Shown here piece by piece: positions 31,724 through 37,267 of a stretch of 64,000 nucleotides of DNA. This stretch comes from an uncultured bacterium. Its GTDB lineage: Bacteria; Gemmatimonadota; Gemmatimonadetes; Gemmatimonadales; Gemmatimonadaceae. A program made the position numbers and the translations under genes. The notes under the pieces are model-generated. The model was given only the letters and a program-made list of their open reading frames with translations, was not told the origin of the DNA and did not search any database. The number at the start of each line of letters is the position of its first letter. Position 1 is the stretch's first letter. The DNA lies in NCBI GenBank assembly GCA_963978095.1, contig CAXBQP010000005.1, positions 1-64,000 of the forward strand. The letters are read 5' to 3'.

Positions 31724-34426
31724 TTACTTCCCTCTGCGCTTCCCCTTGCCCGCCGGCGAACCTGGCCGGAACCCGCCCTTGCCACGCGCCCACGGCGACT
31801 GGTCCGGACGCCCCGAGGCACGCCCACCGCGCGCAGGACGACGCTCCTCGCGTCGGACCTCGTCTTCGGTGAACGGCTTGTCCAATGCGTCCTGGATCTC
31901 CTCCACCGAGTCCGCCTTCACATTCCCGCGCGCGCCGCGCGTGATCGTGAAACGCACGGGACGGTCGAGCAACGGCAATTCCTCGAAGATCAACCCGCGC
32001 GCCACCTTCTCCGGCAACACGAGGCGCACCACCCCCTGCACCTTCCCGTCGCCAACCTCCTCCACTTCATAGTGCATCGGCACGGTGCGATCACGCACTT
32101 CCGCCGCACCCGGCAGCGCATTCAATCGCGCGCGCTCCTCCGGGGACACGAAGTCGTCCGCCCGGAACCGCATCGGCGCCGCGCGGAATCCCTGGATCGT
32201 GGTCACGTTCCCCAACTGCGACTCGTACCACGCCGTGAGCTCCGCCAATCCCATCTTCGGCGTGCGCCCGCCGCTCCGACGATACGCCTCGCGCACCTCA
32301 GCGATCGGCTGCCGGTTCCGCTGCACCGCGGCGTGGTGCGCTTCCTCGCGCGCCATCGCTTCGGCCAGCACGCGCCGGGCGTCAGCTTCCATTCCCGACG
32401 GGAACTCGTGCAACGCCTCACGTTCGCGCTGCAACTCGAAGCCGAAGTACTCCACCCGCCGTTCCATGGCGAGCGGATGGCTCTTGTGGCGCGGGTCGAA
32501 CACCAGCTTGGCCGCACTCGACGTCGCGTACTTCCGGATCAGTTGCTGCGGGACGTTCGTTCCCTCGATCGCCGCGCGCGAGTTGCCATACGCATCAGCG
32601 AAGTAGCGCAGCGTGCCGCTGATCCCGCCCCAGCTCCCGGCCACGCTCGTCTTGCTCACCCGCGCTTCGTGTCCATCGGCGGTGTGCTCGTCGATCACCA
32701 GATCGAACGGCTGATAGCGCGCGAGCAGCTCCACGAACTGCCGCTCCACCGCCTCCGTCACCATCGGCATCACGTCCGGCAACGGGAGCCGCACCGCCCG
32801 GTAGATCGACGCCATCGCGAGTGCGGCATCCTCCACGCTCTTCATGAGCACGCCGCGACGGTCCGCCCACCGCTCCAACGAGGCATCGAACAGATGCCGC
32901 GGCAAGCCGTACACTTCGCCCACATAGCCGCACTTGTGGAACGCCTCGGCGTACACGTTGTACGCGGTGAGGTTGTCGCTCCCGCGGATGATCAGCCCCG
33001 CAAGATCGCGATCCTCGCGCGTCATCCGGTGCAGCGACTCAATCCCGGCCATGACGGCGACATACGGCAGCATGGTATCGTCGCAATGCACGAGCATCTC
33101 GGCCCACGGCCGATCCACCGGCATCGCCTCGACCGCCTTCCCGTACTTCGTGAGTCGCCCGTTCTCGACGATCCCGCGCACCTCGAGGTGTGCCATCGCC
33201 TTGCGATACGCAAGGCGATCGAGCGGCACGGGGAGTTCGAGTTCGTCCGCCCGAACCCCCAGATCCGCGCAGGTGAGTGCCACGCGCTCGCTGTCGCCGG
33301 CGAGCTGGAAGTCGGGCGGCGTCGGACGCAGCGCGTCGAAGGCGATGTCGCGATCGCTCAGAATGAACACGCGCCCACCCGCCACACGCCCGTGGACGCG
33401 CCCGGCCATCTGCAGGATCTCGTTCGCGCCAAGATGCACGCGCGTCAGCACGTTCTTGCCACGATCGATGACATTCGCGAATCGCGTGTCGTCGATCACC
33501 ACCGTGTCGAGCCCCTGGACATTGAGCGCACTTTGGCCGGCCGCGGTCATCGCCAGCAGATACGGCTTGGCCACCGTGCCGTCGAGGAACGGCCGGATCA
33601 CACGAATCGGCTCGCCGCCGTGATAGAACTGCGCGGTGATCCCGCGGAACCGCGCCTGCACGCTCGTCGCCACTTGCTCGACACCGGCACGCGTCGGGAG
33701 GAACACCCCCACGCCGCGTTGCTCCTTGACCACCTTGGCGAGGAATCGATCGTCGAGAAAATGTTGCGGATTCGCGCGCACGACCTCCACATGCGCCGCC
33801 TTGGCGGGATCGAAGGCGCTCGATTCCACCACCGCCTCGGCGTCGAGATAGCGCCGATAAAACGCCGGATCGACGGTGGCCGACAACCAGATGAAGCGGC
33901 ACCCCACGCGCTTCCCCAGCGCGAGACAGAGCTCGAGTTCCGCACTGGTCTGGTGGATCTCGTCCACCACGAGCGTGTCCTGGCGGCGAATATCCCCATC
34001 CTGGAACCAGCGCCGCGCGATGCCGGTGGTCACGATCACCACATTCCAGCTCGGCGACTCGGGCGTGGCCTCGCGCTCGCGGTTGATCACGCCGACGCGC
34101 AACTCGGTGGTGCCGAGCAGTTCCTGCGCGATCGGTTTGACGCTCAGCGTCTTGCCTGTCCCCGTGCCGGCGACGATGCCGAACCCGCGGCGCGGCGCCG
34201 AGAGGGGGGCTTCCAGGTCGTGCGCACGGAAACGTTCAGCGAGCTCGCGCAGTTCAGCGCCACGCGCCTTCCAGAGCACCGTCTCGATGTCGAGGGCGAA
34301 GGCCAGCTCGATCGTCTCGCACGCCGCACGCGTCGGCGCGATGATGATGATGCGGCGAGTCTCCCCCGACCCGACGAAGGCGTCGTGATCGGGGGGGAGG
34401 AACGGGTCGCGGACGTCGCGCAGCAC
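31724..34426 (-). CDS. DExH-box (HrpB-like) SF2 helicase with atypical motif order
   Basis: GTGTGKT, DEIH, SAT, FLPTR, QMAGR motifs; basic RGG-rich C-terminal tail; start GTG 34426 inferred. Confidence 0.88.
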   Translation of the reverse strand: MLRDVRDPFLPPDHDAFVGSGETRRIIIIAPTRAACETIELAFALDIETVLWKARGAELRELAERFRAHDLEAPLSAPRRGFGIVAGTGTGKTLSVKPIAQELLGTTELRVGVINREREATPESPSWNVVIVTTGIARRWFQDGDIRRQDTLVVDEIHQTSAELELCLALGKRVGCRFIWLSATVDPAFYRRYLDAEAVVESSAFDPAKAAHVEVVRANPQHFLDDRFLAKVVKEQRGVGVFLPTRAGVEQVATSVQARFRGITAQFYHGGEPIRVIRPFLDGTVAKPYLLAMTAAGQSALNVQGLDTVVIDDTRFANVIDRGKNVLTRVHLGANEILQMAGRVHGRVAGGRVFILSDRDIAFDALRPTPPDFQLAGDSERVALTCADLGVRADELELPVPLDRLAYRKAMAHLEVRGIVENGRLTKYGKAVEAMPVDRPWAEMLVHCDDTMLPYVAVMAGIESLHRMTREDRDLAGLIIRGSDNLTAYNVYAEAFHKCGYVGEVYGLPRHLFDASLERWADRRGVLMKSVEDAALAMASIYRAVRLPLPDVMPMVTEAVERQFVELLARYQPFDLVIDEHTADGHEARVSKTSVAGSWGGISGTLRYFADAYGNSRAAIEGTNVPQQLIRKYATSSAAKLVFDPRHKSHPLAMERRVEYFGFELQREREALHEFPSGMEADARRVLAEAMAREEAHHAAVQRNRQPIAEVREAYRRSGGRTPKMGLAELTAWYESQLGNVTTIQGFRAAPMRFRADDFVSPEERARLNALPGAAEVRDRTVPMHYEVEEVGDGKVQGVVRLVLPEKVARGLIFEELPLLDRPVRFTITRGARGNVKADSVEEIQDALDKPFTEDEVRREERRPARGGRASGRPDQSPWARGKGGFRPGSPAGKGKRRGK

Positions 34427-34446
34427 GGGGCTCGGAGGCCGGCCCC

Positions 34447-34947
34447 TCAGGGAACCTTCGTGCTGGGCGTCGGAACGGTGACTTGGGGCCCCGTCAGCGG
34501 CTTGGCCGGCCCTAACTCGGTCACGACTTTCACCGTGACGGCCCGGTCCGGCGACTGGAGCGCCGACCGAATGGTCTGCTCCTGCAGCGCGCGACGCGCC
34601 AGCTCCCGCTGCCGCGCGTCGGGATCCGTCGGGAGTTCCCACAGATTCACCGGCTGCGCCGCCCGGGAGCGGCCGTTGGCGCGCGCGTCAATCGGCGTGG
34701 ACCGGACCTCACCGCCGAAGAGCACCGAGGCGCCCTGCGGCCGGGCGCGGATCGCGGCGGCACAGTCGGTGGGTGCCGGCTGTTGAGCGGGGGCCACATC
34801 CTTCAGCCAGATGCGGCACATCCCCGCCGGGGGCATCGCCGACCGTGGAATGAGCGGCTGCGCCGGTTCGGACATGCCCCGATCCTGCGCTCCCAACGGG
34901 AACGCCACCAGGAACGCCATGATCGGCGCCGACCGCTGCAACGGCAT
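34447..34947 (-). CDS. Hypothetical exported protein
   Basis: Signal-like N-terminus; PPAGMCRIW...QPAPTDC Cys-pair motif; start uncertain (34962, 34947 or 34920). Confidence 0.65.
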   Translation of the reverse strand: MPLQRSAPIMAFLVAFPLGAQDRGMSEPAQPLIPRSAMPPAGMCRIWLKDVAPAQQPAPTDCAAAIRARPQGASVLFGGEVRSTPIDARANGRSRAAQPVNLWELPTDPDARQRELARRALQEQTIRSALQSPDRAVTVKVVTELGPAKPLTGPQVTVPTPSTKVP

Positions 34948-35052
34948 GATTCCTCGCACCACGACTCCCTCCCCTCGGTTTCCCGGTTCTCACCGGAGAC
35001 GAACCATCCGCCCCACGCGACACAATCTGCCGAGAATCCGGGGCATTCGGTA

Positions 35053-36138
35053 CTACCCCAGATCCCCGAAACTGATTCCCAATCGACGGGCGGTCCGTAC
35101 GATGTCGTGGTTGGGATCCACCCGTTTCGGGTGCCCAAGCACCTGCGCGATGGGCACGGTCACGATATCCGGCGATTGGAGCGCGACCATATGCCCCCAC
35201 TTGCCGTCTTCCACCGCCTGAACGGCGGCCGACCCGAACCGCGTGGCCAGCATACGGTCGTAGCCGGTCGGCATTCCTCCGCGCTGCAGGTGCCCCAACA
35301 CCAGCGACCGGCACTCCTTCCCGGTCCGTTCCTGGATCTGCTTGGCCAAACGCTCCGCGACGCCTCCCACCCGTTTGGCCTGCCCCGGCAGCGAGGCCCC
35401 CAGCGTGGACTCGCTCCCCCCGCGCTCGAACGCCCCCTCGGCCACCACGACGACCGCAAAATGCCGTCCGCGTTTGTCCCGCTCCATGATCGACCGGCAG
35501 ACCACATCCACGTCGTACGGGATCTCCGGGATCAGGATCACATGGGCCGCACCGGACACCCCCGAATGCAACGCGATAAACCCGGCGCTGCGGCCCATGA
35601 CCTCCATGACGATCACCCGATCATGGCTTTCGGCGGTCGTGTGCAACTTGTCGATGGCTTCCATCGCGGTATTCACGGCCGTGTCGAAGCCGAACGTCGT
35701 GATGGTCCCACTCACATCGTTGTCGATGGTCTTCGGGACGCAGACCATCCGGAGACCGACGTTCCCCATCTGTTGGGCGATCGCGAGGGAGCCATCCCCG
35801 CCGATGGCGATGATCGCGTCGATCCCCAGATTCCGCGCATTGTTGACCAACTCCGCCGATCGGTCGATTTCGCGATACGAGCCGTCGGGCTGCCGCACGG
35901 GATACGAGAACGGGTTTCCCCGGTTCGTCGTGTGGAGGATCGTCCCGCCGAGGTGCCCGATCCCCCGCACCGAATCACGGGTCAGGGGCACCACGTCCCC
36001 CTCGCCGAGCAGTCCGGCGTAGCCCCGCGTGATGCCGAGTACGTGCCAGCCGCGATCGATCGCGGAGAGCACGGCCGCGCGGATGACCGCGTTGAGTCCC
36101 GGGGCGTCACCCCCGCCCGTGGAGATCGCGATTCTCAC
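35053..36138 (-). CDS. pfkA: 6-phosphofructokinase (group III type)
   Basis: TGGGDAPGLN, GGTIL, GGDGS, PKTIDND, EVMGR, LGHLQRGG; GAGGAGG RBS before GTG 36138. Confidence 0.95.
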   Translation of the reverse strand: MRIAISTGGGDAPGLNAVIRAAVLSAIDRGWHVLGITRGYAGLLGEGDVVPLTRDSVRGIGHLGGTILHTTNRGNPFSYPVRQPDGSYREIDRSAELVNNARNLGIDAIIAIGGDGSLAIAQQMGNVGLRMVCVPKTIDNDVSGTITTFGFDTAVNTAMEAIDKLHTTAESHDRVIVMEVMGRSAGFIALHSGVSGAAHVILIPEIPYDVDVVCRSIMERDKRGRHFAVVVVAEGAFERGGSESTLGASLPGQAKRVGGVAERLAKQIQERTGKECRSLVLGHLQRGGMPTGYDRMLATRFGSAAVQAVEDGKWGHMVALQSPDIVTVPIAQVLGHPKRVDPNHDIVRTARRLGISFGDLG

Positions 36139-36368
36139 CTGGTTCTGACCTCCTCGATGAGCGCCAACACTTCCCCGGGCCTGGCGTGCCGCCCGAGTTT
36201 CGATTTCTCGAAGATGGGGACCGCGTCCACACTCACCTCGAACCGGCCACCGCGCGAGGGTTCCATGGACACATCGACATCCGGATAGGTCGCACGAATC
36301 GCAGCTGCCAGACCGACAGCCCGGGGTTCGTAGTTTCAGACGGTGCAGTATTCGATGTTGATGTGCAT
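36135..36368 (-). CDS. SelT/SelW/SelH (Rdx family) selenoprotein, 77 aa, UGA read as Sec at codon 11
   Basis: MHINIEYCTV-U-NYEPRA...GGRFEVSVD...IFEKSKLGRHARPGEV; CxxU motif; UGA at 36338-36336; true stop overlaps the pfkA start (GTGA). Confidence 0.9.
36304..36335 (-). promoter_or_regulatory. Bacterial SECIS-like hairpin
   Basis: 15 nt after the UGA: GCUGUC-GGUCU-GGCAGC stem-loop; the apical GGUCU resembles the E. coli fdhF SECIS loop. Confidence 0.7.
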
Positions 36369-36430
36369 GGCGGGCGGTGCGGGATGCCTGAAATATGCGC
36401 GACGGGCGGCCGGACGGGACGTGACGCCGG

Positions 36431-36706
36431 CTACTTGAGCACCACCACGCCGGTGACGTTCGCGAGCCGCGCGATGGTCGTGTCCTGCTTGGCGACCACG
36501 ACCCGGAGGGAATCCAAGGTGCCCCGCAGTTCGGAGATCTCGTTCTTGGTCGCGTTGACGGCATCGCCCATTTCCAGGACCTGCTGGGCGCGCGCGGCCT
36601 CCCCCTGCGGGGTGCTGCACGAGGCGGAGATGCCGACCGCCGCCGCGAGCAGGAGCGCGCGGCGCACGGAGGGTGGTGAGCACTGGGTGTTCCCGGAACG
36701 CATCAT
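36431..36706 (-). CDS. Small putative lipoprotein with coiled coil
   Basis: RRALLLAAAVGISASC lipobox-like segment, heptad-rich C-terminus; AGGAG before ATG; alternative start GTG 36667. Confidence 0.65.
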   Translation of the reverse strand: MMRSGNTQCSPPSVRRALLLAAAVGISASCSTPQGEAARAQQVLEMGDAVNATKNEISELRGTLDSLRVVVAKQDTTIARLANVTGVVVLK

Positions 36707-36832
36707 GATCTGCTCCTGAGGGCGGAGCGCCGCGCGGTCGCGGCGCGTGGAACGGGTGCGTCGCGCAATCGAACGATGCGACGTCCACTCGCGTCGGAAC
36801 GTATCTCCCTCCCGTACCCGACGGGAGGCGTC

Positions 36833-37267
36833 ATGCGGTGCACCCCATGCTCGGATCGCCGCGGGATCACCTTGCCCGAGTTGGCGGTCGCCTGCACGAT
36901 CGTCGGGCTCACCGCCGGCATCGCGGTGCCGCGGTTCGCGGCGCTGGCCACGCGGCTCATGCTCCGCGGGGGGAGCTACGATGTGCATGCCGCACTCGCG
37001 ATCGCGCAAGCACAGGCGGTGCGCCGGGGGGAACTCGTGGCCTTCGTGGGTGATGGCCCGCGGGGCCGGATTCGGGTCGTCGCGGGCACCGATACCCTGT
37101 TCGCACGTGACCTGGGCGCGCGGGGCCTGACGCTGGCGCTGACCCGCGACTCCATCACGTGGTCCCCGAATGGCCAAGGGTGGGGAGCCGCCAACACCAC
37201 CATCATCGTCTCACGTCGGGGGCTCGCGGACACGATCACCGTCTCGCGCCTGGGCCGCGTGCGGTGA
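36833..37267 (+). CDS. Prepilin-type N-terminal cleavage/methylation protein (GspH/FimT-like minor pilin)
   Basis: RRG|ITLPELAVACTIVG class III signal peptide with Glu at +5; C-terminal VSRLGRVR; GGAGG RBS. Confidence 0.8.
   Translation: MRCTPCSDRRGITLPELAVACTIVGLTAGIAVPRFAALATRLMLRGGSYDVHAALAIAQAQAVRRGELVAFVGDGPRGRIRVVAGTDTLFARDLGARGLTLALTRDSITWSPNGQGWGAANTTIIVSRRGLADTITVSRLGRVR

Follow-up and report, generated by a model that had tools for sequence, protein, structure and literature searches.

A predicted SelW-like selenoprotein gene directly upstream of phosphofructokinase in Gemmatimonadales

The locus

The window analysed here is a stretch of 64,000 nucleotides (nt) from an uncultured bacterium of the family Gemmatimonadaceae (assembly GCA_963978095.1, contig CAXBQP010000005.1, positions 1 to 64,000). 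Its minus strand carries a short gene, termed selW below, which contains an in-frame UGA codon and is directly followed by a gene for 6-phosphofructokinase (pfk; protein, PFK). Family membership, conservation of the UGA and a covarying hairpin downstream of it indicate that selW truly encodes a bacterial selenoprotein of the SelW-like (Rdx) family, a reading to which we assign a probability of roughly 0.9. The features on which the argument turns are the following.

36135..36368, minus strand: predicted SelW-like (Rdx family) selenoprotein gene; 77 codons (36138-36368) and the stop codon TGA (36135-36137), with the motif C8-T-V-U11
36336..36338, minus strand: UGA codon 11, putatively read as selenocysteine (Sec)
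36303..36321, minus strand: predicted upper stem-loop of a selenocysteine insertion sequence (SECIS); a 7-bp helix pairs 36321-36315 with 36309-36303 and is closed by the apical loop GGUCU (36314-36310)
35053..36138, minus strand: gene for 6-phosphofructokinase, 361 aa, GTG start; PF00365 E 3e-101; in 54 related loci the aligned position holds a start codon

The selW frame opens with an ATG (36368-36366), and its first ten residues read MHINIEYCTV. Past the TGA, 66 more codons are open, the last of which encodes R77 (36140-36138). The genuine stop codon TGA (36137-36135) overlaps the pfk start codon GTG (36138-36136) by two bases, so that the two reading frames share the four bases GTGA. In an ordinary list of open reading frames (ORFs) the gene appears only as separate pieces before and after the in-frame TGA. 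A preliminary description of the locus, made from the sequence alone, had proposed this gene, its hairpin and the overlap with pfk; all of these elements were found in place on the minus strand, and reading through the UGA yields the same 77-residue product.

Protein family and fold

The preliminary description had suggested a search of the read-through product against the Pfam Rdx profile (PF10262). The product matches this profile with an E-value of 8e-19 and 68.1 bits (cut-off 22.6) over residues 3-72, an alignment that spans the UGA, and it scores 59 bits against TIGR02174 (SelT/SelW/SelH; cut-off 34.2). An AlphaFold2 model built from 55 relatives reaches a mean pLDDT of 95 and adopts the thioredoxin-like order beta-alpha-beta-beta-beta-alpha. 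In the model the CxxU motif lies between strand 1 (residues 2-8) and helix 1 (residues 14-27), and both C8 and position 11 are invariant across the 55 sequences.

The best Foldseek matches of the model are the bacterial SelW-related structures 2obk (Pseudomonas fluorescens, E 7e-7) and 2fa8 (Agrobacterium tumefaciens, E 1.6e-6), both with a TM score of 0.86. These are followed by 2oka and 2p0g, the latter from Vibrio cholerae (TM 0.85-0.87 for the bacterial set), and then by MIEN1 and mouse SelW (2npb, TM 0.77). The likeness to 2fa8, 2obk and 2p0g extends over 74-75 aligned columns with a root mean square deviation of 1.3-1.4 Å, at a sequence identity of 27-39% to bacterial SelW-related structures and 20% to mouse SelW. 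We take 2fa8, 2obk and 2p0g to be cysteine (CxxC) forms, and we know of no established function for the solved bacterial SelW-related proteins or for mouse SelW.

Conservation of the in-frame UGA

Among 61 searched genomes of the order, the window's own (G000) included, 57 have a homologue of selW, each with an in-frame TGA. The four genomes without a match are 93-100% complete. In all 57 fetched loci the TGA is codon 11 within C-x-x-U, the first ten codons are conserved and the products comprise 72-84 aa. When two unpublished genomes (G006 and G036) are left out, 55 of 59 genomes have a homologue and 55 of these 55 have the TGA. An alignment of orthologues had been proposed as a way to look for a switch between TGA and a cysteine codon; the uniform TGA speaks against a simple nonsense mutation.

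The gene extends well beyond the order. In an even sample of the phylum, which takes in the unpublished genomes G103, G222 and G036, it was found in 185 of 301 genomes (E <= 1e-5), distributed over the families as follows.

f1 37/69; f2 111/125; f3 3/3; f4 3/6; f5 1/1; f6 18/23
f7 7/47; f8 1/4; f9 3/3; f10 0/13; f11 0/3; f12 0/3

Among the matches listed from this sample, each of 150 rows has one TGA (there are 36 further matches). Ten further genomes were checked singly; nine have kept the TGA, and the tenth (G228) harbours a CxxC paralogue with neither TGA nor hairpin. DNA contigs from two other studies (X4 and X5) span positions 36336-36338, and no difference is listed there. At two loci of other genomes, L167 (G122) and L170 (G086), start codon, TGA and hairpin are intact and pfk still follows downstream; the selW frame, disrupted or truncated there after roughly 30-50 codons, could reflect decay or an assembly error.

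The SECIS hairpin

The sequence GCUGUC-GGUCU-GGCAGC begins 15 nt past the UGA, and an additional G.U pair extends the helix to 7 bp (from 14 nt). The distance from the UGA to the apical loop is 21 nt. Bacterial SECIS elements are described with 16-37 nt between UGA and apical loop (PMC10778597), and a conserved apical-loop G is named as a bacterial SECIS feature in an earlier survey (PMC1088965). The selW hairpin agrees with this spacing, lies within the ORF and has a small loop with the conserved G.

In an alignment of 55 sequences the loop follows the pattern [G/A]GU[C/U]U, and G35 and U36 are invariant. U36 falls on the third position of a GGT or AGT codon, and these codons make up 11.8% of glycine and 7.4% of serine codons, respectively, as counted over 1044 long ORFs of the window's genome. 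In the window, a U-A pair of the stem is likewise built from rare codons, namely GCT (3.1%) and GCA (6.2%). The 7-bp helix is paired in 93.8% of all cells of the alignment. Its outermost pair (columns 27-45) joins two third-codon positions, of Arg CGN and Ala GCN, and occurs as GC (24), AU (9), CG (7), GU (1) and UA (1). A second pair between wobble positions (columns 30-42) occurs as CG (47), UA (4) and UG (4) and is never unpaired, and a replacement between valine and alanine within the stem switches U.G to C-G (25 versus 29 sequences). Counted over 12 pairs, with the lower stem among them, the structure has a covariation score of 0.202; column shuffles give 0.138 +/- 0.007 (0 of 500 reach the observed value), and sliding the partners lowers the score to 0.023-0.088. 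These scores apply to a structure taken from one of the aligned sequences and to sequences that are kin. The lower stem entering the score is the less certain part of the element:

36294..36331, minus strand: possible lower stem, ACGAA (36331-36327) with UUCGU (36298-36294); 73.8% of cells paired, weak and poorly kept beyond the genus

The Rdx match across the UGA, the TGA in 57 of 57 homologues and the covariation of the hairpin together with its rare codons are far beyond chance. Several observations nevertheless weigh against the reading as a selenoprotein gene. The related sequences share ancestry, and their counts therefore suggest more independent events than there were. Columns 27-45 are unpaired in 13 of the 55 sequences, and an A.C mismatch occurs at columns 31-41 in 7 of 55. 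A 76-nt fold of the element in this DNA of 67% G+C is no more stable than shuffled sequences (z = +1.06; 171 of 200 shuffles are equally or more stable), and RNAalifold, applied to the 55-sequence alignment, proposed nothing but a non-covarying helix of 4 bp in a different register. No Rfam family was found at 36100-36420 beyond hits at the level of chance, namely isrA (E 0.56) and a CRISPR repeat (E 3.4). At the protein level, the Campylobacter-type equivalog NF041051 was narrowly missed, with 86.4 bits against a cut-off of 88. Finally, a low-depth (4.4) contig of study X4 has two synonymous changes in the 5' arm, at 36318 and 36321, one of which would create a C.A mismatch; the other improves the outer pair of the hairpin (G.U to A-U).

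The selenocysteine trait and a second selenoprotein gene

The genome of the window (101 contigs, 91% complete) encodes the machinery for selenocysteine. Profile matches to selB (341 bits), selA (540.6 bits) and selD (386.6 bits) each exceed the curated cut-off, and a gene for tRNA-Sec (85.4 bits, above the cut-off) lies 88 nt from selD and is called tRNA-SeC with anticodon TCA by ARAGORN. The preliminary description had supposed that the organism uses selenocysteine and had named selA, selB, selC and selD as the genes to look for; all four were found. Together with the family match, the fold, the conserved UGA and the spacing, loop and covariation of the hairpin, this bears out its view of a CxxU selenoprotein gene of the SelW/Rdx type with a bacterial-type SECIS 3' of the UGA.

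The genome was also scanned for TGA codons that have an open frame and a hairpin with an [AG]GU[CU]U loop after them, a scan that sees only this loop type. It returned nine places, two of which are gene-like, selW and the alpha subunit of a formate dehydrogenase (FdhA) on contig C24, so that the number of two selenoproteins is a lower bound. A filter based on third-position G+C (GC3) was dropped; it yielded 741 candidates and missed selW itself, because selW uses rare codons. The FdhA gene (locus L171:986-3298, minus strand) has its TGA at 2684-2686 and reads ...SCNRTU-HAPSVVGL...; across the TGA it scores 648 bits against TIGR01591, under the cut-off of 666, for a query that was a stop-to-stop stretch with the start unset. 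Its hairpin, CGUCGUC-GGUCU-GGCGACG, places the loop 18 nt after the UGA. An identical loop at a similar spacing in two unrelated genes is what a single SelB would need.

Taken together, the predicted course of expression is as follows. Translation would begin with the ATG at 36368. Once ribosomes reach UGA codon 11, SelB with Sec-tRNA(Sec) would bind the GGUCU-capped hairpin 21 nt downstream within the frame, and insertion of selenocysteine would give a thioredoxin-fold protein of 77 residues whose redox centre is C-x-x-U. The actual insertion of selenocysteine, and what the protein reduces, are points that we infer.

The selW-pfk unit

With selW in first place, selW and pfk form a unit of two genes that is conserved in Gemmatimonadales. 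The product of pfk scores 377.6 bits against NF002872 (cut-off 253) and 428.6 bits against TIGR02483, below the cut-off of 430.55. In 54 of 57 loci of the order pfk lies directly downstream of selW (52 of 55 without the unpublished two), in line with the synteny that the preliminary description had pointed to as a check. The junctions fall into the following classes, with counts for all 57 loci and, in brackets, for the set without L028 and L052.

Overlap of 4 nt: 23 (22)
Overlap of 10 nt: 8 (8)
Gap of 0-15 nt: 9 (8)
Gap of 16-90 nt: 14 (14)
No pfk after selW: 3 (3)

Two further short elements of the window belong to this arrangement.

36149..36155, minus strand: GAGGAGG, Shine-Dalgarno-like, within the selW coding sequence, 10 nt before the pfk GTG; found in the four closest loci (L023-L026)
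36392..36397, minus strand: CATATT, putative -10-like element, 24-29 nt upstream of the selW ATG

Most loci of the genus have, as judged by eye, a -10-like element (ATATTT, TATATT or GATATT) 20-35 nt upstream of selW (matching places in L024-L054), and none was seen between selW and pfk. A scan of 34800-37200 for consensus promoters and terminators gave 0 sites. Sister families have other conserved boxes upstream of the gene (cttggca…ctacgatt; gcgtcaag…gtgctagagtg). Two metatranscriptomes (X18 and X19) contain one short contig each that is identical to pfk, at 35975-36153, reaching 15 nt into selW, and at 35142-35297, respectively; the presence of a contig in an RNA library alone does not show transcription, and the overlap in X18 falls short of the 31 letters required for bridging.

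At L057 and L064, two of the three loci of the order that have no pfk after selW, a gene for a DEAD-box helicase follows selW immediately, as if pfk had been lost from the unit; the corresponding gene of the window lies beyond pfk (31727-34642, minus strand). In other orders of the class, pfk is downstream of selW in one (L162) of six loci with enough flank, and the remaining neighbours are unrelated. They include genes for a mannose-6-P isomerase-like protein, glutamate dehydrogenase, a Pyr_redox_2 oxidoreductase, DinB and a CNNM/CBS protein, and no common partner of selW emerged among them. The Pyr_redox_2 gene (L165:302-1477, minus strand; E 8e-57) closely follows selW and has the same orientation.

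Five genomes of the same family lack selW (98-100% complete). None of the five has selA, and all five have pfk, at 73-75% identity. Since these relatives without selA keep pfk, selW appears to have been lost with the selenocysteine trait while pfk stayed. Upstream of selW, the window has a small gene (36431 to ~36700, minus strand) with a signal-peptide- or lipobox-like N-terminus (GISASC), a coiled-coil tail and no Pfam family. In two of the five relatives without the trait (L173 and L175) this coiled-coil, lipoprotein-like gene immediately precedes pfk.

Why the two genes stay together

A stop/start overlap of four bases is an ordinary operon feature and permits ordinary translational coupling. 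The preliminary description had gone further and proposed that pfk translation is coupled to selenocysteine insertion, which would tie entry into glycolysis to selenium or redox status. Two versions of such a link can be told apart: the selenocysteine codon may gate pfk on a shared mRNA, or the SelW-like protein may be a dedicated redox partner of PFK, so that in both cases PFK output would follow selenium or redox status. That one or the other applies we regard as unlikely.

Gating by the codon is the slightly better placed of the two and is itself improbable. It would mean that PFK synthesis needs ribosomes that have decoded the UGA as selenocysteine, and that glycolytic entry follows selenium status. 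The coupling could work through termination and reinitiation at the GTGA, or through Rho polarity on the approximately 200 nt left untranslated after termination at the UGA. The overlap in the window and at 31 of 54 related junctions, the adjacency in 54 of 57 loci and the promoter-like element upstream of selW are compatible with this idea, as is the fact that a Shine-Dalgarno-like core precedes only 14 of the 54 linked pfk starts. However, the five stand-alone pfk genes of the selW-less genomes also show, by eye, no Shine-Dalgarno-like core, and the missing core is therefore no sign of coupling. The gaps of 16-90 nt at 14 of 54 junctions, the GAGGAGG that the window's own pfk start possesses and the retention of pfk in genomes without selW all argue against dependence on the UGA. 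Moreover, RNA of the selW-pfk junction does not fold more stably than its shuffled versions (z 0.14). Its minimum-energy fold includes a local hairpin, GGAGGUC/GAUCUCC, around the start of pfk, which was not seen, by eye, to be kept in relatives. The proposed coupling of pfk translation to selenocysteine insertion thus did not find support.

A dedicated redox partnership, in which the SelW-like protein reduces or regulates PFK directly, is less probable still. It would explain the fixed pairing across the order, and a thioredoxin-like Rdx fold with a CxxU centre would suit the task. Yet no cysteine of PFK is specific to the linkage with selW: C214 is present in 47 of 53 linked and in 5 of 5 unlinked enzymes, and the other cysteine columns are variable. 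This count covers 58 full-length PFKs, with L028 and L052 left out and L029, L046, L055, L057 and L064 absent or cut. The partnership also sits poorly with the single linked locus among the six of other orders, with the three loci of the order where selW stands without pfk, and with the pfk genes of the relatives that have no selenocysteine trait. A link between selenium and glycolysis is accordingly possible, though unsupported by these comparisons and somewhat weakened by them, and the evidence leans towards plain co-transcription of selW and pfk.

That the UGA is a plain stop, arising from a nonsense mutation, a sequencing error or pseudogene formation and leaving at most a post-UGA fragment made from an internal start, is very improbable: gene callers do report such fragments under the name Rdx family protein, and L167 and L170 do look degraded downstream of the hairpin, but a fragment of this kind would be without strand 1 and the redox motif, and the TGA stands at the same codon in every homologue of the order, behind ten conserved codons with an invariant C8, is unchanged in the contigs of two other studies and occurs in a genome with the selenocysteine machinery.

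Relation to known systems

Both the protein family and the mechanism of recoding are long established, and bacterial SelW-like selenoproteins were described in 2005. In the catalogues of Zhang, Gladyshev and colleagues, SelW-like proteins are listed among the prokaryotic selenoprotein families with a bacterial SECIS in the Sargasso Sea data (PMC1088965), and a survey of bacterial genomes from 2006 includes them, with very few cysteine homologues in selenocysteine-using organisms (PMC1794560). The available text of the latter makes no mention of Gemmatimonadetes or of phosphofructokinase. No paper on the selW-pfk unit was found, and, judging by titles, no paper on Gemmatimonadetes selenoproteins deals with it.

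The product of selW resembles the prokaryotic SelW-like selenoproteins (PF10262, TIGR02174, NF041051) in its length of about 75-80 aa, its N-terminal CxxU, its thioredoxin-like fold and a SECIS with an apical-loop G that lies within the ORF just after the UGA. Cysteine forms are rare in selenocysteine-using organisms; those encountered here are one CxxC paralogue (G228) and one unverified database entry with CVVC. Unlike the catalogued members, selW belongs to a Gemmatimonadota lineage and has a fixed place directly upstream of pfk. To our knowledge, no substrate is known for bacterial SelW-like proteins.

The hairpin is like the SECIS of formate dehydrogenases of the E. coli fdhF type, a minimal upper stem-loop bound by SelB, in being a short upper hairpin at a fixed distance after the UGA with an apical G-U. 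The loop of E. coli fdhF also contains GGUC, and the GGUCU loop recurs unchanged in FdhA of the window's own genome, where it covers V-G-L codons and starts 18 nt after the UGA as against 21 nt in selW. In contrast to the fdhF type, no bulged U is evident in the selW hairpin, and no Rfam model covers it.

Annotation and implications

The preliminary description had called the gene hidden. This holds insofar as ordinary gene finders cut it short; databases already contain truncated relatives under Rdx or SelW-like names. Among the 120 matches listed, most of these relatives are fragments of 43-68 aa, and names in use include “Rdx family protein [Gemmatimonadaceae bacterium]”, “SelT/SelW/SelH family protein” and “predicted Rdx family selenoprotein”. 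Twelve database entries were inspected at the protein level only; six are full-length with tryptophan at the TGA, one has CVVC (P0003) and one has arginine. The tryptophan at the selenocysteine codon in full-length entries (the P0003-P0011 set) looks like gene calling under a code in which TGA is read as Trp.

Throughout the phylum, annotation cuts the gene at the UGA, calls it from an internal start or reads the TGA as tryptophan, and the selenoproteomes of Gemmatimonadota are undercounted because the gene is routinely misannotated at this codon. As a comparative finding, the selW-pfk unit of Gemmatimonadales is new to a modest degree. With pfk as a fixed metabolic neighbour, it offers a concrete candidate for work on SelW-like proteins; if the UGA did gate pfk, or if the protein were a redox partner of the enzyme, phosphofructokinase output would track the selenium or redox status of the cell.

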